Program-made: the position numbers and the translations under genes
Notes under the pieces: model-generated
The model's database searches: none
Told to the model about the DNA's origin: nothing
The model's input: only the letters and a program-made list of their open reading frames with translations
Part shown: positions 3,831 to 64,000 of the stretch, piece after piece
Layout of the letters: every line of letters begins with the position of its first letter
Position numbering within the stretch: the stretch's first letter is position 1
From: Krischvirus LF73P4
Sequence record: OZ035795.1
Length of the DNA: 64,000 nt
Reading direction: 5' to 3' (one strand)

Positions 3831-3863
3831 TTTTGATTCTCCGTTTGTTGTCTTGATGGGAGT

Positions 3864-3892
3864 ATATTACTACTCCCTTTAATCATTGTCAA
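3864..3892 (-). promoter_or_regulatory. sigma70-type early promoter (PeSL-like)
   Basis: minus strand TTGACA (3887-3892), 17-nt spacer, TAATAT (3864-3869); GGGAGTA/TACTCCC palindrome around -10. Confidence 0.65.
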
Positions 3893-3895
3893 CTA

Positions 3896-4063
3896 TTATT
3901 TGTTAATTTCCGGTGCGTTGCTCGGATAGTAACCTTCTTTAACACCCAGATATTTTGCGACCATTCCGGTGATCTTCTGTGCTACTACAATGTCAAATTT
4001 CAGGTAGTCTTCACCGTGGTTTGCTACAATGTATGCTTCGCATTCTGCTTTAGTCTGGAACAT
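3896..4063 (-). CDS. hypothetical protein (55 aa); paralog of 626..793
   Basis: ATG 4061-4063 with SD1; near-identical to 626-793 at nucleotide level. Confidence 0.5.
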   Translation of the reverse strand: MFQTKAECEAYIVANHGEDYLKFDIVVAQKITGMVAKYLGVKEGYYPSNAPEINK

Positions 4064-43031: not shown

Positions 43032-43060
43032 TTGACAGCATATCACGGGAGTAGTAAGAT
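43032..43060 (+). promoter_or_regulatory. sigma70-type early promoter (PeSL-like)
   Basis: TTGACA (43032-43037), 17-nt spacer, TAAGAT (43055-43060). Confidence 0.65.
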
Positions 43061-43093
43061 ACTCCCATACCAAAACAACTAAGGAGTATCAAG

Positions 43094-43492
43094 ATGATTA
43101 AATTTCAAACTCGCAAAGATGTTCTGGACTTCGTTAAAGTTTTCGGTTACGCTGCATTGCAACATGCAATGGACAAAATGGCCATCTCCCCAGATCAGAC
43201 TATGCTGATCCGTATGGTTAAAGCAACCGCCTACAAAAACGACATTACCCTCTCAGAAATCAACGACGGTAATACTGTTCGCGAGGTAATTGTTTCTTTC
43301 GAATCACCGAAAATTGGCGGTTTTCATACCACGATGTTAGGTGAAATCACTGTCACTGTATACGGGCAAGGTGGCGGAGTGTTTACCGTCAAAGAAGCAA
43401 TGGAAAATGGAACGCTGAACAAAGAAAAACTGGAATTTGTCCTGAAAATCATCAAGGAGCGTAACGAAGCTCGCGATATTCTGGAAAGTTAA
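43094..43492 (+). CDS. hypothetical protein (132 aa)
   Basis: SD AAGGAGTATCAAG-ATG. Confidence 0.55.
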   Translation: MIKFQTRKDVLDFVKVFGYAALQHAMDKMAISPDQTMLIRMVKATAYKNDITLSEINDGNTVREVIVSFESPKIGGFHTTMLGEITVTVYGQGGGVFTVKEAMENGTLNKEKLEFVLKIIKERNEARDILES

Positions 43493-51225: not shown

Positions 51226-51238
51226 TTCAAAAAAGTTG

Positions 51239-51267
51239 TTGACAGGGGATCACGTATCCCCTATACT
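51239..51267 (+). promoter_or_regulatory. sigma70-type early promoter (PeSL-like)
   Basis: TTGACA (51239-51244), palindromic spacer GGGGATCACGTATCCCC, TATACT (51262-51267). Confidence 0.7.
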
Positions 51268-51309
51268 ACACACATCAAAACGAAACACACTTTCTTAAGG
51301 AGAATCAAA

Positions 51310-51588
51310 ATGAGCAACCTGTCTTTCGCTAAAGTAGAAATTTCTAAAACTCGCGGTGGCTTTAAAATCAAAACTTCCAATATCACTTCCTGCCGTGGTT
51401 GCGTCCGGTTTGCGTTCGACTTGGCAGCGAAGCTGGGTATTAAAACCTTTACCGTTGAGAGCGGATCTAACTGGACCACTCTGATTGTTACTGCCGCTTG
51501 GATTAATGGCGAGTATGTGGAAAAAGCATACTTTGACATTTTCTATGACTATGAAGAAAAATGCTTTTATGCACTGCAAGACATGTAA
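51310..51588 (+). CDS. hypothetical protein (92 aa)
   Basis: SD1 context. Confidence 0.55.
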   Translation: MSNLSFAKVEISKTRGGFKIKTSNITSCRGCVRFAFDLAAKLGIKTFTVESGSNWTTLIVTAAWINGEYVEKAYFDIFYDYEEKCFYALQDM

Positions 51589-54354: not shown

Positions 54355-54636
54355 ATGGTAGAAATTTTTGGTTTTGAAGGTTACAACTGTAAGTATTGCC
54401 AGAATGCAAAGCGCCTTTGTGAATCGCGTAAGATCCCTTACATCTACATTCCGGTTAATGATGGTGTAGACGAAAACGGTCGTCCGGTAAAGATTGATTC
54501 TATCATTGCCGACATTCAGGATCGCGCAGGGGTAGAAGTTATTGCCACCATGCCGCAGATTTTCTATAATGGTGATTATATAGGTGGTTTTGATGAGTTC
54601 AGATCCTTTGTAGTCAAAAACAAGATTAATGGTTAA
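54355..54636 (+). CDS. nrdC: glutaredoxin/thioredoxin (T4 NrdC-like)
   Basis: CKYCQNAKRL redox motif and TMPQIFYNGDYIGGFDEF; start adjusted to ATG 54355. Confidence 0.8.
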   Translation: MVEIFGFEGYNCKYCQNAKRLCESRKIPYIYIPVNDGVDENGRPVKIDSIIADIQDRAGVEVIATMPQIFYNGDYIGGFDEFRSFVVKNKING

Positions 54637-54660
54637 ATACCTTCTTTGGAGGGTGAATTT

Positions 54661-55134
54661 ATGTTACTGACTGCTAAGAGTGCTAAAGAGTACAAACAAG
54701 AACTATTCGAAAAACAGGGGGGCATTTGCCCCCTTTGTCAATTGCCCCTTTTTGAGGATATGAGCAAAAACCATCTTGACCACGACCACGATCTAGATGG
54801 GAAAGGTCAAGGCCGTGTAAGGGGATTGCTTCATTCGTGTTGCAACCGCCTAGAAGGATCGTTGACCGGAGACTTTAAGCGGTTTGGAGTTGGTGCTTTA
54901 GGTGCTGATTTCGTTGTTTGGGCTACAAACTATGTTAATTACATCAAAGGAGACTACACCAACAATCATTTACATCCTCAATATGCTGTTGATAAAGTAA
55001 AACGATTTTCACGCTTGACACGCGCGGAGATGGTTGCTATTATGGACGCAGAAGGTTTCGATTACTGCGACGCTGATACACGAGAAGAAATCACGAAGAA
55101 GTATAAGAAACAATTTATACAAAGATTAAGATAG
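54661..55134 (+). CDS. 49: endonuclease VII (T4 gp49-like Holliday junction resolvase)
   Basis: CPLCQ ... NHLDHDHDLDGKGQGRVRGLLHSCCN and C-terminal region match T4 endo VII; start adjusted to ATG 54661. Confidence 0.9.
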   Translation: MLLTAKSAKEYKQELFEKQGGICPLCQLPLFEDMSKNHLDHDHDLDGKGQGRVRGLLHSCCNRLEGSLTGDFKRFGVGALGADFVVWATNYVNYIKGDYTNNHLHPQYAVDKVKRFSRLTRAEMVAIMDAEGFDYCDADTREEITKKYKKQFIQRLR

Positions 55135-55137
55135 TGG

Positions 55138-55166
55138 TTGACAATAAGAAATGGGAGTAGTAAAAT
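55138..55166 (+). promoter_or_regulatory. sigma70-type early promoter (PeSL-like)
   Basis: TTGACA (55138-55143), 17-nt spacer, TAAAAT (55161-55166). Confidence 0.65.
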
Positions 55167-55197
55167 ACTCCCATCTAATCAAGAAGGAGAATCAACA

Positions 55198-55470
55198 ATG
55201 CGTAAGATGTTTAAAGCTGGTGTGGCCTATGTTTTTAAATCTGAGCAAGCACGTAAAGACTTCTTAGAGGACGACTACGAAGGTCTGAAAGATACCTACG
55301 AAGCAATCAAGAATGGATTTACTGTTCTTAAAGTGTCACCTATTGGTTATGTAAGTGAAATCTCGGTTGATGGGAAAACCTACACCGCTAAAGACTTTGA
55401 TCCGCGTTGGGAATTTATGCTGCTTCCATGTGACCGCATTCTGTTTCGTGCTGTTCAATTAGTGAAATGA
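55198..55470 (+). CDS. hypothetical protein, GFxVL/KDF family member (start adjusted)
   Basis: SD1-like AAGGAGAATCAACA-ATG; shares NGFTVLKV segment with following genes. Confidence 0.5.
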   Translation: MRKMFKAGVAYVFKSEQARKDFLEDDYEGLKDTYEAIKNGFTVLKVSPIGYVSEISVDGKTYTAKDFDPRWEFMLLPCDRILFRAVQLVK

Positions 55471-55484
55471 TAGAGGATTATATT

Positions 55485-56051
55485 ATGGTACAGAAAACGT
55501 ATAAATTGTATCCGGCTAAGTCTTCAAATGATGCTGTTTTTGAACGAGGTCGTTATTACACTTTCCGTAATGCTGAGTCCGCAGTGGAATTTGTTAAACG
55601 CTATCCACAACATAACAAATTCCTGCATGATGTGCTTCGCAATGGCTTTAAAGTTCTGACGGTTAATGTTATGGGTAAAGTGTATTTGGTAGAAACTCAT
55701 GATTATGAGGGCGCGTCAATAATGATTGATGCAAGCGAGCGAAAATACTTTAAACGCATCACTAAAAAGCAGTTTGAAGAAATGAAACCAGTTAAGAAAG
55801 AAGAATCTCTGGAAGACCTGATTAACTTGTTTGCGAAGTCTTCTTTGGTGTCATTGACGCTGGAAGATTTTAGCTTTGATAATCAGCTATACTTTAAAAA
55901 TGCAGATGACTTGAAAGATTTTCTGATTGAGAATAAACCTAAGCTAGAAACCTATATCAAAGGTGAGCTTAAGCGCATGGAACATCAAGCAAAATATAGC
56001 GCCGATAAAGTAGCTGAACTGAAAGAGATCCAAAAGTCATTTAACGCTTGA
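55485..56051 (+). CDS. hypothetical protein, GFKVL/ERKYFKRI family member
   Basis: exact SD2 context; RNGFKVLTV and ERKYFKRITK segments. Confidence 0.5.
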   Translation: MVQKTYKLYPAKSSNDAVFERGRYYTFRNAESAVEFVKRYPQHNKFLHDVLRNGFKVLTVNVMGKVYLVETHDYEGASIMIDASERKYFKRITKKQFEEMKPVKKEESLEDLINLFAKSSLVSLTLEDFSFDNQLYFKNADDLKDFLIENKPKLETYIKGELKRMEHQAKYSADKVAELKEIQKSFNA

Positions 56052-56076
56052 CATGATGAAACGGGAGTAGTAAGAT
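56048..56076 (+). promoter_or_regulatory. sigma70-type early promoter (PeSL-like)
   Basis: TTGACA (56048-56053) overlapping upstream stop, 17-nt spacer, TAAGAT (56071-56076). Confidence 0.65.
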
Positions 56077-56107
56077 ACTCCCATCTAAACAACGAGAGGA
56101 TTATATT

Positions 56108-57286
56108 ATGGCTAAATTCTTTGAAGGTCATTACTATGCATTCCGTGAAGGCGGTAAAGATGAGTTTCTAGACTTTTCTCGCTATTCAATTATTCTGACC
56201 GATGCTTCGCGCCGTGGTCATATTCGGGTTGCTGAAATCGTAGAAAAGGGCTTTAAAGTATTAGAAAAAGATGACCACGGTCATGTTATTACTATTGAAG
56301 CTGGAGATGTAGTTTATTCCGCTAATGATATTGTTGATTATTGGGCTACTATGATTATGAACAATGAGCGCAAATACTTTAAACGTATCTCAAAAGAGGC
56401 ATACGAAGCGATGAACAAGAAAGAGGATGCAATGCCGACTTACTTTGAAAAAGGTAAATGTTATTCGTTTACCCCAGAAGGTTTGCAAGAATTTAAGCGA
56501 TTCTGGGGAGAGCATGACCCAGAGCACAAAGAAGCTATGAAACTTGTTGATTTTGTCGAATATGGCTTTTTAGTTGAAGAAGAATTGCACGGATCAGCTA
56601 CCATGATCACCGCGAAAGGTGAAACTGTTAAGGCAGATCGTTTTTGTGACCAATGGAATTGCTTGTTTGACGGTAGCGAATTTGAATACTTCGCGGAAAT
56701 CACGCGAGTTGAATATGTCCGTATGCAGGAGCGTGGTCAGAGATTTAAAGTAGGCGAACGCTACAAACCAAATCCACATAATTTGCCTCATTGGTTTAAC
56801 ACTGAAACCGTATCCAGTCATGTTATTGAAATTGTTCAAAAGCTGGAACATGGATTTAAGGTAACTAAAGTAGATTCTTTCGGAAGTGTTGACGCGGTTG
56901 AAATTGATGGTGTAGAATATACACCGAAATCTTTCGGGCTTTGCTGGTATCACTTGATCAGCAATGATGAACGTTATAACTTTGTTGAACTGCCATCTGA
57001 ACCGGAAGAAGCACTAGAAGATCATGATCATCTGTCTGAACTGGTTAAGCTGTTTGGTGATCTGCCGGATGGTGTGGGTGTTGCGGTAATGGGTGAAGGT
57101 ACTGTTATTCGCAACCTGAAAGACCTTAAAAAGTTCTTGATCGACATGCTTCCTAAACTCGATGAGAATCTAGATACAGATATTCAGAATCGCAAAGAAA
57201 TTGTTAAAGAGACTGAAAAAGAGATCGAAGAGATTCGAGCAATTCGCCAGAAGGTGAAAGCAGTAAAGAAAAAAGTTAGTGTTTGA
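56108..57286 (+). CDS. hypothetical protein with internal repeats, GFKVL/ERKYFKRI family (392 aa)
   Basis: repeated GFKVL/GFLVE/GFKVT units and NERKYFKRISK; C-terminus similar to 55485..56051. Confidence 0.5.
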   Translation: MAKFFEGHYYAFREGGKDEFLDFSRYSIILTDASRRGHIRVAEIVEKGFKVLEKDDHGHVITIEAGDVVYSANDIVDYWATMIMNNERKYFKRISKEAYEAMNKKEDAMPTYFEKGKCYSFTPEGLQEFKRFWGEHDPEHKEAMKLVDFVEYGFLVEEELHGSATMITAKGETVKADRFCDQWNCLFDGSEFEYFAEITRVEYVRMQERGQRFKVGERYKPNPHNLPHWFNTETVSSHVIEIVQKLEHGFKVTKVDSFGSVDAVEIDGVEYTPKSFGLCWYHLISNDERYNFVELPSEPEEALEDHDHLSELVKLFGDLPDGVGVAVMGEGTVIRNLKDLKKFLIDMLPKLDENLDTDIQNRKEIVKETEKEIEEIRAIRQKVKAVKKKVSV

Positions 57287-57310
57287 CATGCGAAGGGAGT
57301 ATGCTATAAT
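57283..57310 (+). promoter_or_regulatory. sigma70-type early promoter (PeSL-like)
   Basis: TTGACA (57283-57288), 16-nt spacer, TATAAT (57305-57310). Confidence 0.65.
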
Positions 57311-57340
57311 ACTCCCACTTAACAACGAGAGGATTATATT

Positions 57341-57835
57341 ATGTGGGTACAAGATGTTTGGTATACTGTAACTAAAGAAAACCTTGACGCATTCAGCGAC
57401 CAATCTTGCGCTAATAGCTCAATTGCTGGTATACTTACTGATGTGTTTGGTGGTGTTGATAAAATTCGTTTTAAAGTTGTTGTTAGTTCGATGGGGCATG
57501 TGCAAGATCTTTACACCGAAGATAAAGACCTTGATCTTGAACTTCGTCTTCGTATTGAGAATGCAAGTCTAGGTTATTGGTTTGAAGATAACGAGTATGA
57601 ATACTTCACACCAGCAATTAAAGTTTTTGCAACTAAACTGGAAGCTGTACTAAATCTCCGACCAATTAATGTTGACGGTTACATTATCAAAAATATTCAG
57701 GAGTGGGATTCATATCTAGATCAGATTATCCGAAATAGTAAGCAGGAAGCCGCTAATAAGAAGCGACAAGAGATCAAACAACTGAAAGCTGAACTGGAAG
57801 CGGCGGAAAAAGAATTAGCAGAACTGGTAAAATAA
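57341..57835 (+). CDS. hypothetical protein (164 aa) with C-terminal coiled coil
   Basis: exact SD2 context. Confidence 0.5.
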   Translation: MWVQDVWYTVTKENLDAFSDQSCANSSIAGILTDVFGGVDKIRFKVVVSSMGHVQDLYTEDKDLDLELRLRIENASLGYWFEDNEYEYFTPAIKVFATKLEAVLNLRPINVDGYIIKNIQEWDSYLDQIIRNSKQEAANKKRQEIKQLKAELEAAEKELAELVK

Positions 57836-57844
57836 CTATCAACG

Positions 57845-57867
57845 AGCGGGAGAAATCCCGCTTTTTC
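57845..57867 (+). terminator. rho-independent terminator (AGCGGGA-GAAA-TCCCGCT)
   Basis: hairpin followed by TTTTTC. Confidence 0.6.
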
Positions 57868-57879
57868 ATAGGTGATACA

Positions 57880-59742
57880 ATGGAAAAACTAATCAAAGAC
57901 ATTACAGAGATCGCAACGGGTAAAGAAAACGAAGTAAGCAAAGAGAACGCGAACAAAGACGCGCGAACATTCCCGACACGTCGAGATCTGATTGCTGGTG
58001 CTGTGTCTAAACAGATTGCTAAAACCGTGTTACCTGAGCACATCTATAAAGCGCATGTAGACGGTGACATTCATTATCATGATATGGATTATGCACCCGC
58101 TATGCCGTTTACTAACTGCTGTCTTGTTAATCTCAAAGACATGTTAGAGAATGGTTTTAAATTGGGTAGCGCACAAATCGAAAGTCCGAAATCAATCGGC
58201 GTTGCTTGTGCTGTAACCGCTCAAATTATCGCACAGGTGGCAAGTCATCAATATGGCGGGACCACAATTGCAAACATCGATCAGGTTTTAGCGCCATACG
58301 TTGAGAAAACATATCATAAACACCTTGCTGATGCCGAAACCTACGGAATCAAAGCGGATACTCTCTATGCACAAGAGAAGACAGAAAAAGAAACGCTAGA
58401 CGGGTATCAAGCGTTGGAATATGAAATCAACACTTTGTTCTCCACCAACGGTCAAACACCTTTTGTGACTTTAACATTTGGTATGGGTACTAGCTGGGAA
58501 GAAAAACTGATTCAGAAAGCGATCCTGAACGTTCGAACTAAAGGTTTAGGTAAAGATGGTATCACTCCGGTGTTTCCTAAGCTGGTGATGTTCTTAGAAG
58601 AAGGATTAAACCTTAAACCGGAAGATCCGAACTACGACATTAAGCAACTTGCATTGGAATGTTCTAGTAAGCGTCTTTACCCTGATTATATCTCTGCGAA
58701 GAATAACCGTAGTATCACCGGATCTAGTGTTCCGGTTAGCCCGATGGGTTGTCGTAGCTTCCTGGGTGTGTGGCATAATGAGAAAGGCGAAGAAGTATTA
58801 GACGGACGTAATAACTTAGGTGTTGTGACTCTGAATCTTCCGCGTATTGCCCTTATTGCCGCTCGTCGTGCTGGTAAAGCGTCTGTAATGCGCAGAATTG
58901 AGCTATTCGAACAAGAGCTAGCTAATCGTATGCCTATTTGCTTTGATGCGCTCATGAGTCGCGTAGACGCTTTAAAAGGGGCTAAAGCCAATGTTGCTCC
59001 GGTGCTGTATACAGAAGGTGCATTTTTCCGTATTCATCAAAACGATGAAATTTTGGAAGTGCTGAAAGATGGTCGCGCTAGTATCTCTCTTGGATATATT
59101 GGTTTACATGAGGTATTGAGCGTCCTGTTTGGTGTTCATCCGTTTGATTCGGAAGATGCGCAGCGATACGGTAAACATATTCTTAAGATCTTGCGTCATT
59201 ATACTGAAAAATGGAAGGACGAAACCGGACTTGGGTTTAGTCTTTACGGTACTCCAGCCGAGAGCCTTTGCTATCGATTTAATCGACTGGACCGAGAGCA
59301 ATTTGGTATTGTTAAGGGTGCTACCGATAAAGACTGGTACACCAACTCATTCCACCTTGACGTAGACCGGAAAGTCACACCGTTTGAGAAAATCGACTTT
59401 GAGAAAGATTATCACTGGCTGGCGTCCGGTGGCATGATCTCTTATGTTGAGTTCCCAGACATGAAAAACAACCTGAAAGGTCTTGAAACTGTAGTAGACT
59501 ATGCAATGGATAAATTGCACTACTTCGGTGTTAATACTCCTTCTGATGTATGTCATGTATGCGGATCTAATAAGGAAATGAGAGCGACCGAGTCTGGTTT
59601 TGTTTGCCCTGATTGCGGCAATGACAATCTGGAAAAGATGAATGTTATCCGTCGCGTTAGTGGATATCTTGGATCTGTTGATCTGCGTCCATTTAACCAC
59701 GGGAAACACTCCGAGATGGTAAACCGCGTTAAGCACATGTAA
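57880..59742 (+). CDS. nrdD: anaerobic ribonucleoside-triphosphate reductase (class III)
   Basis: C-terminal CPDCG zinc ribbon and RRVSGYLG glycyl-radical motif; 620 aa. Confidence 0.95.
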   Translation: MEKLIKDITEIATGKENEVSKENANKDARTFPTRRDLIAGAVSKQIAKTVLPEHIYKAHVDGDIHYHDMDYAPAMPFTNCCLVNLKDMLENGFKLGSAQIESPKSIGVACAVTAQIIAQVASHQYGGTTIANIDQVLAPYVEKTYHKHLADAETYGIKADTLYAQEKTEKETLDGYQALEYEINTLFSTNGQTPFVTLTFGMGTSWEEKLIQKAILNVRTKGLGKDGITPVFPKLVMFLEEGLNLKPEDPNYDIKQLALECSSKRLYPDYISAKNNRSITGSSVPVSPMGCRSFLGVWHNEKGEEVLDGRNNLGVVTLNLPRIALIAARRAGKASVMRRIELFEQELANRMPICFDALMSRVDALKGAKANVAPVLYTEGAFFRIHQNDEILEVLKDGRASISLGYIGLHEVLSVLFGVHPFDSEDAQRYGKHILKILRHYTEKWKDETGLGFSLYGTPAESLCYRFNRLDREQFGIVKGATDKDWYTNSFHLDVDRKVTPFEKIDFEKDYHWLASGGMISYVEFPDMKNNLKGLETVVDYAMDKLHYFGVNTPSDVCHVCGSNKEMRATESGFVCPDCGNDNLEKMNVIRRVSGYLGSVDLRPFNHGKHSEMVNRVKHM

Positions 59743-61158: not shown

Positions 61159-61651
61159 TACATACGGAAAACTACGCTATGCCGATATTAAAGATTGTGA
61201 TATGGTTAACGGTGAGGGAGTGAGAGTCTCCCTTTACGTTACCGGATGTTCACACGCATGTGATGGTTGCTTTAATGCTAGCCTACTCAATCCTAAGAAC
61301 GGGGAACCATTCACCGATGATACAATGGGATTGATTCTGGATCTGCTTAGACCTGATTTTATTCAGGGGCTAACATTCTTAGGTGGCGATCCACTGTATA
61401 AACGCAATTTAAAGGGTGTACAGCGGATCATCGATGAAGTAAAATCATGGATGCCAAATAAAGATATTTGGCTATGGTCCGGTTATACCCTTGACCAATT
61501 GAATGATGAGCAAAGAAAAATCGTAGAATCAGTTGACATGTTCATCGATGGGCGTTATATTAAAGATATGCCAACGAAGAAGCCGTGGCGGGGGTCTGAC
61601 AATCAAGTACAATACAAGATTGTTAATAGTATTCCAGTAAAAATTATTTGA
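61142..61651 (+). CDS. nrdG: anaerobic ribonucleotide reductase activating protein (radical SAM)
   Basis: CSHACDGC (Cx3Cx2C) radical-SAM motif; overall match to T4 NrdG as recalled. Confidence 0.9.
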   Translation: MNMSSDTYGKLRYADIKDCDMVNGEGVRVSLYVTGCSHACDGCFNASLLNPKNGEPFTDDTMGLILDLLRPDFIQGLTFLGGDPLYKRNLKGVQRIIDEVKSWMPNKDIWLWSGYTLDQLNDEQRKIVESVDMFIDGRYIKDMPTKKPWRGSDNQVQYKIVNSIPVKII

Positions 61652-61661
61652 GGTGATTGCT

Positions 61662-62150
61662 ATGAAATGGGAATTGGGTAAGATGTACACTCTTGATGGT
61701 GATGAGAAGAAAGCAGAATTTACCAAATCTGAACTGTCAATCAACCGTCAAGTTGCTGAGTTTCTTGATGGACGTCCTTTTACAGTCGAGGTTATGAGTA
61801 ATGAGGGTCATGTTCTTGAAATCTCGTTAAGTGATGGTAAATGTATTTCTGTTCGAGACACTCCAATTGGTGCGCACGGTGCATGGTTTTGGGCTGGTGA
61901 ACGTCGATTCTTTAAAGAAGTTAAAGAACCAGATCTAACTTTAGAACGTCTGGGTCTGCTTATGGAAGCCTACGACATTCAGTTAATCGATAAGACGGGG
62001 TTACAACATAGTATTGCCAAAATTACTACCCTAGAAGGTATTAAGAGCGTTCTAAATGGTATGCCTAGCCGGATTGGTGCTATCCGCGAATACAAGCAAA
62101 CGCGAGACCGTATGATCCAATTAGAATCACGTATCAAAAATGAGAGATAA
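61662..62150 (+). CDS. hypothetical protein, KWExGKTY family member 1
   Basis: MKWELGKMYT ... RPFTV ... RRFFKEV; start adjusted to ATG 61662. Confidence 0.5.
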   Translation: MKWELGKMYTLDGDEKKAEFTKSELSINRQVAEFLDGRPFTVEVMSNEGHVLEISLSDGKCISVRDTPIGAHGAWFWAGERRFFKEVKEPDLTLERLGLLMEAYDIQLIDKTGLQHSIAKITTLEGIKSVLNGMPSRIGAIREYKQTRDRMIQLESRIKNER

Positions 62151-62154
62151 TATT

Positions 62155-62640
62155 ATGAAATGGGAAGAAGGTAAGACCTATGCGTTGGTTGGCGAATACG
62201 AAAAGCGTATTTTGCGTGATTGTTGGAGTTACGAACAAAGACCTAATATTGATGGTATGTTTACATATCTAGATAAACCATTTACTGTCGCTACGGTAGA
62301 CCGTTGGGGTAATGTGCGTTCAATCTATAATCACGAAGGGGATTATATTAGTTCTATCGATATTGGTGATAATATATGGTTTTCCGATGGTGACCGAGCG
62401 TGCTTCAAAGAAGTTTTATTACCTGGTCATGAATATGATCTAATAGACCTTCTCAAATTGGCGATGGATAATTATAAAATCCGCTTTGAATGCAAATCAC
62501 ATGCGGCTATCGGTGCTAACGCCTTGCGTCATATCTCCAGTTTTGAAGAGTTGAAAGATTTTCTTGACAAAATGCCGGAAAGGGTGCAAGCTATACAGGA
62601 AGCAGAGAAAGCATTAAACGAACTTGATAAAATCGGTTAA
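62155..62640 (+). CDS. hypothetical protein, KWExGKTY family member 2
   Basis: MKWEEGKTYA ... KPFTV ... RACFKEV; SD2 context. Confidence 0.5.
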   Translation: MKWEEGKTYALVGEYEKRILRDCWSYEQRPNIDGMFTYLDKPFTVATVDRWGNVRSIYNHEGDYISSIDIGDNIWFSDGDRACFKEVLLPGHEYDLIDLLKLAMDNYKIRFECKSHAAIGANALRHISSFEELKDFLDKMPERVQAIQEAEKALNELDKIG

Positions 62641-62652
62641 GGGGAATATATT

Positions 62653-63477
62653 ATGAAATGGGAAATTGGTAAAACTTACACTTGGAAAGATGAAAACGCT
62701 AAAACTGAGTTTATTACTAACGGAGAAGGTGTTCTTTCTCCACTTAACAGCGATATTAGTGCATCTATTGGTGACAAGCCATTTACCATCATCGAGATCG
62801 ATGGCAACGGTTGGATTAATGCAATAGAGCTAGACGGTGTTTATCATACGGCGAAAACTGCTACAGGAAAAGACATTTGGACTGCAACATATTTCTTTAG
62901 TCCATTCGATAGAAAATTCTTTCGTGAAGTTGAAGAAGTTCCCCAGAAATGGGAAGTTGGTAAAACTTATACTTGGAAAGATGTGAATGCTATGACAGAC
63001 TTCTGCCATTATGCTGAAAACGTATCTAACCTTAATTATGTTATTGCACGAGCAATAAATTATAGACCTTTTACTGTTAAAAATGTTAGTCCATGTGGGC
63101 AAATTGATGTAATTGAAATTGATGGTAAAGACCATACTCTAATGAGCGCAACCGAAGATAGAGACCATAAAGGAACTAGCTGGTTTATTGATTCTGATAG
63201 AAAATTCTTTCGTGAAGTAGAAGAATTGGAAGTTATAACCACTGATTCTAAAATCGTTGGACAGTTGAAACGTCTGTTTAGTAGTCGTTACGGCCTGACA
63301 ATGGTTAAATTTGGCGAAGCAAATGAAGGTAAAACCTTTGAACGTTTCGATGATTTCATCGCAGCACTTGACAAGATGGACGAAATAATGCAAGATCGCC
63401 AGAAGATTAAAGACCTTCAAGAAGACATTAAACGTCGTGAAGTTGAATTTTTGATTGGTAAAGAGCGAGGATGGTAA
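62653..63477 (+). CDS. hypothetical protein, KWExGKTY family member 3 (two tandem copies of the domain)
   Basis: MKWEIGKTYTWKD ... RKFFREV and QKWEVGKTYTWKD ... RKFFREV within one ORF. Confidence 0.5.
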   Translation: MKWEIGKTYTWKDENAKTEFITNGEGVLSPLNSDISASIGDKPFTIIEIDGNGWINAIELDGVYHTAKTATGKDIWTATYFFSPFDRKFFREVEEVPQKWEVGKTYTWKDVNAMTDFCHYAENVSNLNYVIARAINYRPFTVKNVSPCGQIDVIEIDGKDHTLMSATEDRDHKGTSWFIDSDRKFFREVEELEVITTDSKIVGQLKRLFSSRYGLTMVKFGEANEGKTFERFDDFIAALDKMDEIMQDRQKIKDLQEDIKRREVEFLIGKERGW

Positions 63478-63478
63478 T

Positions 63479-63958
63479 ATGTTTGTTGTTGGTATGACCT
63501 ATCAGTGGAAAAACGATCGAGCGCGGAAAGCCTTTGCAACCAGTGTTGCAAATGATGCAATAGCAGACTTTATCGGTGACCGTACATTTAAAGTTATCGC
63601 TTTTGAAAAAATTGCGTCAGATATCGAATATGTTTCTGCGATTGAAATTGATGGAAAAACATACACCTGTCGAGATGTTGATGATGTACGGGAATACGCG
63701 CACAACTGGTTTTTGCAATCAGAAGAACGTTATTTTAAAGTGGTGTCGTCAGAACTGACTACTGATGCAATGTTGGAACAATTTTTCAACAACTACGAAG
63801 TTTCTGTACGTCGCTATGGCGAAGAAGAAGTGTTTAAAATCGATGATTACAATCAGTTTAAACGAGTATTCGCCACTAAGTTGCAGCGTGACTTTGAACG
63901 TGACCAACGGATCAAGGAACTGGAAGAAGAATTGGAAAGATTAAAGGCTGAGAAATGA
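63479..63958 (+). CDS. hypothetical protein, KWExGKTY family member 4 (divergent)
   Basis: MFVVGMTYQWKND ... RTFKV ... ERYFKVV; start adjusted to ATG 63479. Confidence 0.5.
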   Translation: MFVVGMTYQWKNDRARKAFATSVANDAIADFIGDRTFKVIAFEKIASDIEYVSAIEIDGKTYTCRDVDDVREYAHNWFLQSEERYFKVVSSELTTDAMLEQFFNNYEVSVRRYGEEEVFKIDDYNQFKRVFATKLQRDFERDQRIKELEEELERLKAEK

Positions 63959-64000
63959 TCGAGATATACGGTATACCGAAAGAGGCTTATCATTGTTATG
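63955..64000 (+). CDS. partial CDS running off the window end (N-terminus MIEIYGIPKEAYHCY)
   Basis: ATGA-coupled start; truncated by window. Confidence 0.3.
   Translation, partial: MIEIYGIPKEAYHCY

Follow-up and report, generated by a model that had tools for sequence, protein, structure and literature searches.

Three consecutive open reading frames (ORFs) at 55198-57286 of a 64,000-nt stretch of Krischvirus LF73P4 DNA (record OZ035795.1; the whole stretch is referred to below as the window, and positions are counted along its given strand) were described in an earlier note, made from the sequence alone, as a family of internally repeated proteins. The locus raises the question whether these ORFs, here named A, B and C, are truly related, to which known proteins they belong and what they might do during infection. 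Together with five further genes of the window, D to H, they are almost certainly paralogous, presumably early genes of the GoF/Frd.2/MotB.1 family of phage T4, united by a module of about 90 residues. The fuller explanation, in which GoF-family identity is combined with an early post-transcriptional role on mRNA, appears about as likely to hold as to fail.

The repeated module and its extent

The three ORFs are present at the coordinates given in the note, and consist of the following parts (aa, amino acids; the barrels are predicted, as set out below):

55198-55470, plus strand: gene A, 90 aa, a single barrel module without a C-terminal domain, most similar to C module 3
55485-56051, plus strand: gene B, 188 aa, one barrel (residues ~17-105) followed by a small C-terminal domain and ending in a long helix, without a promoter of its own
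56108-57286, plus strand: gene C, 392 aa, three barrels and a C-terminal domain
56108-56425, plus strand: C module 1, residues 1-106, closest to the B barrel and carrying NERKYFKRISK
56432-56737, plus strand: C module 2, residues 109-210, z-score 17.6 against module 1
56738-57013, plus strand: C module 3, residues 211-302, resembling gene A and T4 Frd.2 most closely
57014-57286, plus strand: C-terminal domain and stop codon of C, comprising a helix, a beta-hairpin and a 55-residue amphipathic helix, related to the B C-terminus

The module was taken as the whole of A, residues 15-112 of B and the three segments of C listed above, and the several copies perceived earlier in the 392-aa protein are exactly these three. 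Pairwise blastp comparison aligned B with residues 1-124 of C (E 1e-6), A with residues 244-298 of C (E 4e-5) and residues 246-385 of C with residues 51-188 of B (E 2e-4). Smith-Waterman scores set against 200 shuffles gave z-scores of 17.6 for C modules 1 and 2, 15.7 for modules 1 and 3, 14.9 for module 1 and B, and 12.6 for A and module 3. Each module omitted in turn was recovered by a profile hidden Markov model (HMM) built from the remaining ones, with E-values, scaled to the window's 628 six-frame ORFs as the database, of 7e-18 for A, 4e-12 for B and 7e-17, 8e-8 and 7e-10 for the three C modules. The corresponding range over all members, including those introduced below, is 2e-5 to 3e-18, and the best unrelated ORF of the window matched the module profile only at E > 0.1. 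On account of these leave-one-out E-values, the shuffle z-scores and the absence of unrelated matches below E 0.1, the repeat is considered real. The proposed likeness between the C-termini of the 188-aa and 392-aa proteins also stands, with a z-score of 8.0 and none of 500 shuffles reaching the observed score.

The sequence motifs by which the relationship was first noticed differ in their reach. GF(T/K)VL-type units occur in A (NGFTVLKV), B (NGFKVLTV) and, three times over, C (KGFKVLEK, YGFLVEEE and HGFKVTKV). The ERKYFKRI segment, which had been attributed to all three ORFs, is found as (S/N)ERKYFKRI(T/S)K in B and C module 1 only; A carries a degenerate CDRILFRAV, C module 2 SEFEYFAEI and C module 3 DERYNFVEL.

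The repeats are likewise not confined to 55198-57286. An HMM built from the modules of A-D only matched four further genes, E (E 6e-5), F (5e-6), G (2e-15, in two domains) and H (1e-8), and leave-one-out searches recovered E at 7e-16, F at 5e-12 and H at 8e-15, while the two modules of G align to one another with a Smith-Waterman z-score of 35. For gene D, a profile of the ten remaining window modules gave E 2e-5, and a wider-family profile from which D-like sequences had been removed gave 1e-9. On these profile matches the family in the window comprises eight genes with 11 modules, one cluster lying before the nrdD-nrdG segment and one after it. If the cluster at 61662-63958 corresponds to the first repeated family of the earlier note, in which A-C were called the second, both would be one family. 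The additional members are:

57341-57835, plus strand: gene D, 164 aa, a divergent fourth member with a barrel and a coiled-coil tail, absent from the set first proposed
61662-62150, plus strand: gene E, 162 aa, a barrel and a C-terminal domain, beginning right after nrdG
62140-62640, plus strand: gene F, 166 aa (161 aa if the ATG at 62155 is used), matching phrog_5347
62653-63477, plus strand: gene G, 274 aa, two tandem barrels (62653-62937 and 62938-63231) and a C-terminal domain
63455-63958, plus strand: gene H, 167 aa (159 aa if the ATG at 63479 is used), of the same family

The low pairwise identities between modules (15-38%) and the want of a convincing pairwise match for D (z at most 3.7) are what might be expected if the ORFs were unrelated small ORFans whose similarity is compositional or due to chance, but this exceedingly improbable reading is already refuted by the profile tests, given the leave-one-out E-values against a background of E > 0.1, the independent PHROG profiles that match C in three stretches and the repeated prediction of the same fold by AlphaFold2.

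A further ORF, 51226-51585 (plus strand, 120 aa), an orthologue of Phi1 ORF070, matched the widened barrel profile weakly and only in part (E 0.004, profile positions 31-86). It was not accepted as an additional member, being either very divergent or noise.

Over 54600-58000 the DNA shares 99.7% identity with Escherichia phage FL15 and about 97% with Phi1, and all 58 records matching this segment are RB49/Phi1-type coliphages of the genus Krischvirus, family Straboviridae. By its sequence, the window is a Krischvirus (RB49/Phi1-like, T4-type coliphage) genome. Genes A-C are flanked by gene 49 (endonuclease VII, 54646-55134) and nrdD (57880-59742). Comparison with Phi1 gave ratios of non-synonymous to synonymous substitution (dN/dS) of 0-0.27 for A-D (A 0; B, C and D 0.1-0.27), which indicates that these are real genes; they are under purifying selection that is looser than that on the flanking gene 49 and nrdD (0.03-0.08).

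The predicted fold and the relationship to GoF and Frd.2

The profile built from the 11 window modules alone matched residues 2-92 of T4 GoF (E 1e-10) and residues 2-89 of T4 Frd.2 (E 4e-6), and C module 3, the window module most similar to the N-terminal domain of Frd.2, aligns with it at z 9.2. MotB.1 is a marginal match, with residues 6-84 found at E 0.009 by the window HMM and 2e-4 by the widened HMM, and pairwise z-scores of at most 2.4. Both T4 GoF and Frd.2 belong to phrog_622, a profile that matches C at 6e-19 in three stretches and G at 5e-18 in two stretches, as well as A, B, E, F and H. In addition, A matches phrog_16115 and B matches phrog_8944, annotated as goF, at E 2e-98. In the RefSeq record of Phi1 the orthologues of B and C are labelled as goF mRNA metabolism modulators, C bearing the gene name frd.2 there and in the RB49 record, while the orthologues of A and D are hypothetical proteins. 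The assignment to the GoF/Frd.2 family is made because the window-only profile matches the T4 proteins and because the predicted fold agrees with that described for the family by Kim et al. (PMC12152347).

The AlphaFold2 model of B, based on a 22-sequence alignment of paralogues, has predicted local distance difference test (pLDDT) scores above 90 for residues 20-100 and comprises strand 1 (24-27), two helices, strands 2-4 (55-60, 66-70 and 77-81), a short helix, strand 5 (89-92) and a helix. In the model of C the same order of strands and helices recurs three times (residues 9-103, 118-208 and 218-295), followed by a helix, a beta-hairpin and the 55-residue helix; module 1 is built from strands 9-12, 49-54, 59-65, 68-71 and 91-94 with a helix at 32-44, and the tail from helices 307-318 and 337-391 with strands 323-327 and 330-334 between them. 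Both models show a low-confidence linker after the barrels, leading to the helix-hairpin-helix region, with A, a bare barrel, as the exception. The module is thus predicted to be an SH3-like, bent, five-stranded antiparallel barrel with two helices inserted between strands 1 and 2. The modelled architecture of the family is one to three N-terminal barrels of about 90 aa, usually a small domain of helix and beta-hairpin, and a long amphipathic C-terminal helix, which probably mediates oligomerisation.

The nearest solved folds are FeoA, the SH3-like domain of DtxR/IdeR, the MIB repeat, the C-terminal Tudor domain of PcrA/UvrD and the RNA-polymerase-interacting domain of CarD. A Foldseek search of the PDB returned no significant match (best E 0.1), and the Sm fold, an N-terminal helix followed by five strands, was not found as a top structural neighbour. 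Foldseek against BFVD gave 40 matches at E of 1e-3 or below, the named ones all being phage proteins, mostly of T4-like phages, including one annotated as GoF in phage VR7.

Among 1.84 billion representatives, hmmsearch found only about 50 proteins at E of 1e-3 or below. The short matches are phage-like proteins of 90-274 aa and include a T4 GoF orthologue (P0063, E 9e-5), and the same search gave other two- and three-module proteins (P0035, P0041 and P0058). About 15 long matches (800-1600 aa, partial and in multiple stretches) were rejected as false positives of beta-strand pattern, the four that were checked being Ig-like, Fn3, cadherin or Big_2 repeat proteins. A word-indexed homology search gave only orthologues at 85% identity or more when queried with C, and only Krischvirus-level relatives when queried with the module alignment. 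Searches of the window proteins against Pfam, NCBIfam, PADLOC and PDB sequences yielded no match above threshold, and sub-threshold matches to RecT, LYR, HALZ, Csn2 and CARF_PIN were regarded as noise. The Pfam family FRD2 (PF03197; gathering threshold 29 bits) did not match A-D at E of 1 or below, nor C module 3, E or G at E of 10 or below; T4 Frd.2 scores 133 bits against this model, and T4 GoF matches neither it nor any other Pfam family, so that the model is too narrow and covers only the Frd.2 branch. The superfamily is scattered over PHROGs 622, 5347, 8944, 16115, 15067, 3710, 5804, 13003 and 2980, mostly annotated as of unknown function.

The C-terminal domains are linked in pairs, B with C, E with F, G with H and C with D, and they do not match the C-termini of T4 GoF or Frd.2.

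About 145 kb of the 164-kb Phi1 genome (all but the structural-gene segment at 95-114 kb) were also scanned for the family. A ninth member (E 4e-7), the 211-aa ORF021 (NC_009821, 12171-12806, minus strand), lies directly downstream of helicase gene 41, whose mRNA is stabilised by T4 GoF(D25Y), an adjacency that is suggestive; a 211-aa protein of phage ECD7 named Dc2 was also returned by the BFVD search. In the scanned segments of Phi1 there is no family member beside frd, and no goF, cef, motB or motB.1 between 39.2 and dexA, which are adjacent in Phi1 (NC_009821, 5129-5972 and 138433-140789 examined). Judged from these positions, the family is relocated relative to T4 rather than kept in synteny.

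Transcription units and recombination

Each of the genes A-C had been credited in the earlier note with its own promoter of the PeSL type, an element shown experimentally for Phi1/RB49 to combine a sigma-70 early promoter with a stem-loop terminator or attenuator (Arbiol et al. 2010, PMC2839356). Such cassettes precede A, C and also D:

55138-55174, plus strand: putative PeSL cassette before A, with the -35 element TTGACA at 55138-55143, the hairpin GGGAGTA/TACTCCC at 55151-55174 and the -10 element TAAAAT at 55161-55166, in the loop and 3' arm
56048-56082, plus strand: putative PeSL cassette before C, with TTGACA, a hairpin at 56063-56082 and the -10 element TAAGAT; promoter match 10/12
57283-57316, plus strand: putative PeSL cassette before D, with a perfect TTGACA-16-TATAAT and a hairpin at 57295-57316; promoter match 12/12 with a TG extension
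57844-57867, plus strand: hairpin resembling an intrinsic terminator, GAGCGGGA/TCCCGCTT and then TTTTT, at the end of the A-D block ahead of nrdD

The three cassettes are nearly identical, with TTGACA, about 9 nt, GGGAGTA, a loop with the -10 element and TACTCCC, and their hairpins of 7-9 bp fold at -13 to -14 kcal/mol (z -2.7 to -3.8). The cassette before A (promoter match 11/12; fold -13.8 kcal/mol, z -3.8) is 73% identical over 79 nt to that before C. The hairpin pattern GGGAGTA...TACTCCC occurs five times in the window against an expectation of 0; the two further cassettes, with the same hairpin and -35 TTGACA, lie at 43032-43095 (plus strand) and 3858-3900 (minus strand), the latter oriented for minus-strand genes. 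Gene B has no such element in the 14-nt gap that follows A; all that it shares with C and D is the ribosome-binding-site block GAGGATTATATTATG, and A and B are probably transcribed together. The hairpin at 57844-57867 (-16.7 kcal/mol, z -4.5) was missed by a simple terminator scan, although none of 200 shuffles folded as well.

Gene A starts at the ATG at 55198, with AAGGAG 9 nt upstream; the longer start suggested by the longest-ORF call, a TTG at 55138, was rejected, that TTG being the -35 hexamer of A's own promoter. The start of E at the ATG at 61662 has GAGGTG 6 nt upstream and is shared with the orthologue P0016, while a GTG at 61653 was discarded because it sits within the Shine-Dalgarno sequence of E.

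No PeSL-type hairpin was found at E-H by the pattern scan of the window, and these tightly packed or overlapping genes are presumably read through from nrdG. Transcription units A-B, C and D would each begin at a promoter-hairpin cassette, and host sigma-70 RNA polymerase would transcribe the family genes immediately after infection.

The arrangement of the modules points to a history of rearrangement. As A resembles C module 3, the B barrel C module 1 and the B tail the C tail, either A and B together appear to represent a copy of C that was split or rearranged, or C appears to be a fusion. In G, the two modules form a 291-nt DNA repeat, with a 30-mer that is 97% identical at the module boundary; metagenomic and isolate relatives (P0009-P0013) include single-barrel alleles of 174-181 aa made of either module, and the locus is shorter by about 290 bp in several genomes, so that the module number in G changes by homologous recombination. 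The A-D block is full length in 56 of the 58 Krischvirus genomes, and the mosaic E-H cluster is covered to at least 80% at the megablast level in 28. The best match to the latter (61600-64000) is vB-Eco-KMB43 (99.1%), while FL15 is 94% identical there over 79% of the query, and these differing nearest relatives indicate recent mosaic recombination within 6 kb. Duplication of genes and modules, together with recombination, would have produced the paralogues in a hyperplastic region, the module and PeSL boundaries supplying the homology for that recombination.

Possible functions and comparison with known systems

What the proteins might do can be approached through GoF, an abundant early protein of T4 whose knock-outs have no laboratory phenotype, and whose variants D25Y and G84R suppress the restriction of T4 growth on certain rho alleles of the host; with GoF(D25Y), gene 41 mRNA has a longer half-life, an effect that does not depend on Hfq (PMC12152347). 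By analogy, the Krischvirus proteins may be early, non-essential post-transcriptional modulators. Their barrels would act on phage mRNAs early in infection and make them more stable, whether through direct contact with RNA or by tying up host proteins that handle RNA, while tandem barrels and coiled-coil oligomerisation would add multivalency; for GoF itself, Kim et al. found no confident AlphaFold3 oligomers (PMC12152347). As it is drawn only from the genetics of T4 GoF, this mRNA-stability mechanism is put forward tentatively, as somewhat less probable than not. In an hmmalign alignment, the column of G84 holds K or R in six of the 11 window modules and that of A83 holds R in eight of the 11. 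The column of D25 is F in C module 1 and Y (or R, given an adjacent indel) in B, which also carries K at the position of the G84R suppressor. Being the only clearly basic member (isoelectric point 9.0) and bearing such suppressor-like residues, B is the foremost candidate for binding RNA directly.

Several points weigh against this picture. Most modules are acidic, with net charges of -4 to -9 and -20 for C overall, which argues against general RNA binding. The indel beside the D25-equivalent column makes the residue equivalence in B uncertain. In the reporter assay, wild-type T4 GoF and MotB.1 changed little; the effect came from the mutant alone, and even that variant is not known to bind RNA directly (PMC12152347). 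The model of C is of moderate confidence (pLDDT 70; predicted template modelling score 0.33) and does not fix the arrangement of the barrels, and a common profile of the C-terminal domains was not supported in leave-one-out tests, except for the E/F pair, so that homology across these domains is weak.

The acidity of most modules and the nearest solved folds, which are protein-binding SH3-like domains, would suit barrels that serve as protein-protein modules, in the manner of SH3, Tudor, KOW or FeoA domains. Binding to host Rho, RNA polymerase or RNase E and the degradosome, with each paralogue or module directed at a different host protein or allele, would then affect mRNA only indirectly. 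The goF mutations came from a selection for suppressors of host rho alleles, and Kim et al. were unable to distinguish binding to RNA itself from an interference with nucleases (PMC12152347). No partner is known for any member, however; a pull-down of tagged T4 GoF from uninfected E. coli gave essentially only GoF monomer and dimer (PMC12152347), and B, with its basic character and suppressor-like residues, fits such a role poorly. Somewhat unlikely when taken by itself, this alternative is rated nearly as likely as the RNA-stability mechanism. The model favoured here is that a subset of the barrels, namely that of B and perhaps C module 1, contacts RNA, whereas the acidic barrels more probably bind proteins.

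The multiplicity of the genes, the mosaicism of E-H and the occurrence of G with one or two barrels would also be explained if the paralogues were anti-defence or host-range proteins, acting as inhibitors or decoys against bacterial immunity. Their location in a PeSL-rich hyperplastic region of non-essential early genes and the higher dN/dS of B, C and D (A being 0) than of the flanking core genes are in keeping with such an arms race. The conservation of A-D at full length in all but two of the genomes speaks against it, as does the absence of a PADLOC match, a weak test since that database holds defence rather than anti-defence proteins, and this explanation is considered improbable. More speculative still, and quite doubtful, is the idea that tandem-barrel C and G together with their coiled coils might form a multi-barrel, Hfq-like platform (a dimer of C or a trimer of G giving six barrels) that acts as an RNA chaperone or mRNA protector, with the K/R and aromatic residues, known in T4 GoF as the gain-of-function substitutions G84R and D25Y, as the natural active state of B and C module 1. 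Were this true, a function that stays cryptic in T4 with wild-type GoF would be switched on in Krischvirus.

Among known systems, Sm, LSm and Hfq proteins share with the modules a small, bent, five-stranded antiparallel barrel and, through GoF(D25Y), a proposed link to RNA stability. The resemblance to FeoA and to the SH3-like domains of DtxR/IdeR is one of fold class and is not evidence of shared function: identities are 10-15%, there is no sequence-profile link, no metal-ligand histidines of the DtxR type were observed, and only the phage proteins have the helices inserted between strands 1 and 2. FeoA-like metal binding, which also lacks an iron-transport context, was set aside. The cassettes before A, C and D, each with a consensus sigma-70 promoter and a G/C-containing stem-loop just upstream of ORFans in hyperplastic regions, do not differ in kind from the PeSL of RB49 and Phi1 (PMC2839356).

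The closest counterpart is the T4 family of GoF (comC-alpha), Frd.2 and MotB.1, described as having an LSm-like fold (Kim et al. 2025, PMC12152347). Common to both are the N-terminal five-stranded barrel of about 90 aa with conserved F..G..Y, F.V, G.V..I and (E/D)xxxF, FeoA and the DtxR SH3-like domain as structural neighbours, a linker followed by a small variable C-terminal domain, and a probable early-gene context in T4-type phages, with an apparently non-essential role and a hyperplastic location. They differ in that T4 has three dispersed single-barrel genes, as opposed to eight clustered genes here (and a ninth near gene 41 in Phi1) that include three-barrel, two-barrel and bare-barrel proteins, and in the long coiled-coil-like C-terminal helix of most Krischvirus members, which is absent from GoF and Frd.2. 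Krischvirus also lies outside the Tevenvirinae, the subfamily for which the family was described.

The GoF/Frd.2 family as such is already known, and B and C are so annotated in RefSeq; when the literature was searched for papers that mention two of the names frd.2, goF and motB.1, the family paper alone came up. Term searches of that paper and of the PeSL paper (PMC12152347 and PMC2839356) gave no mention of the Krischvirus expansion to eight or nine genes, the membership of A, D and E-H, the three- and two-barrel architectures, the copy-number polymorphism or the natural suppressor-like residues. These features amount to a modest extension of a known family and do not reveal a system of a new kind. 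T4-type phages have many abundant, non-essential families of early proteins, of which the GoF family is one, and GoF has been studied genetically for decades. The union of at least five PHROG families (622, 5347, 8944, 16115 and 15067) in one superfamily would improve the annotation of T4-like genomes, and the eight to nine paralogues, with their multi-barrel and basic members, offer a richer set of natural variants with which RNA binding and host-protein binding can be tested against each other.

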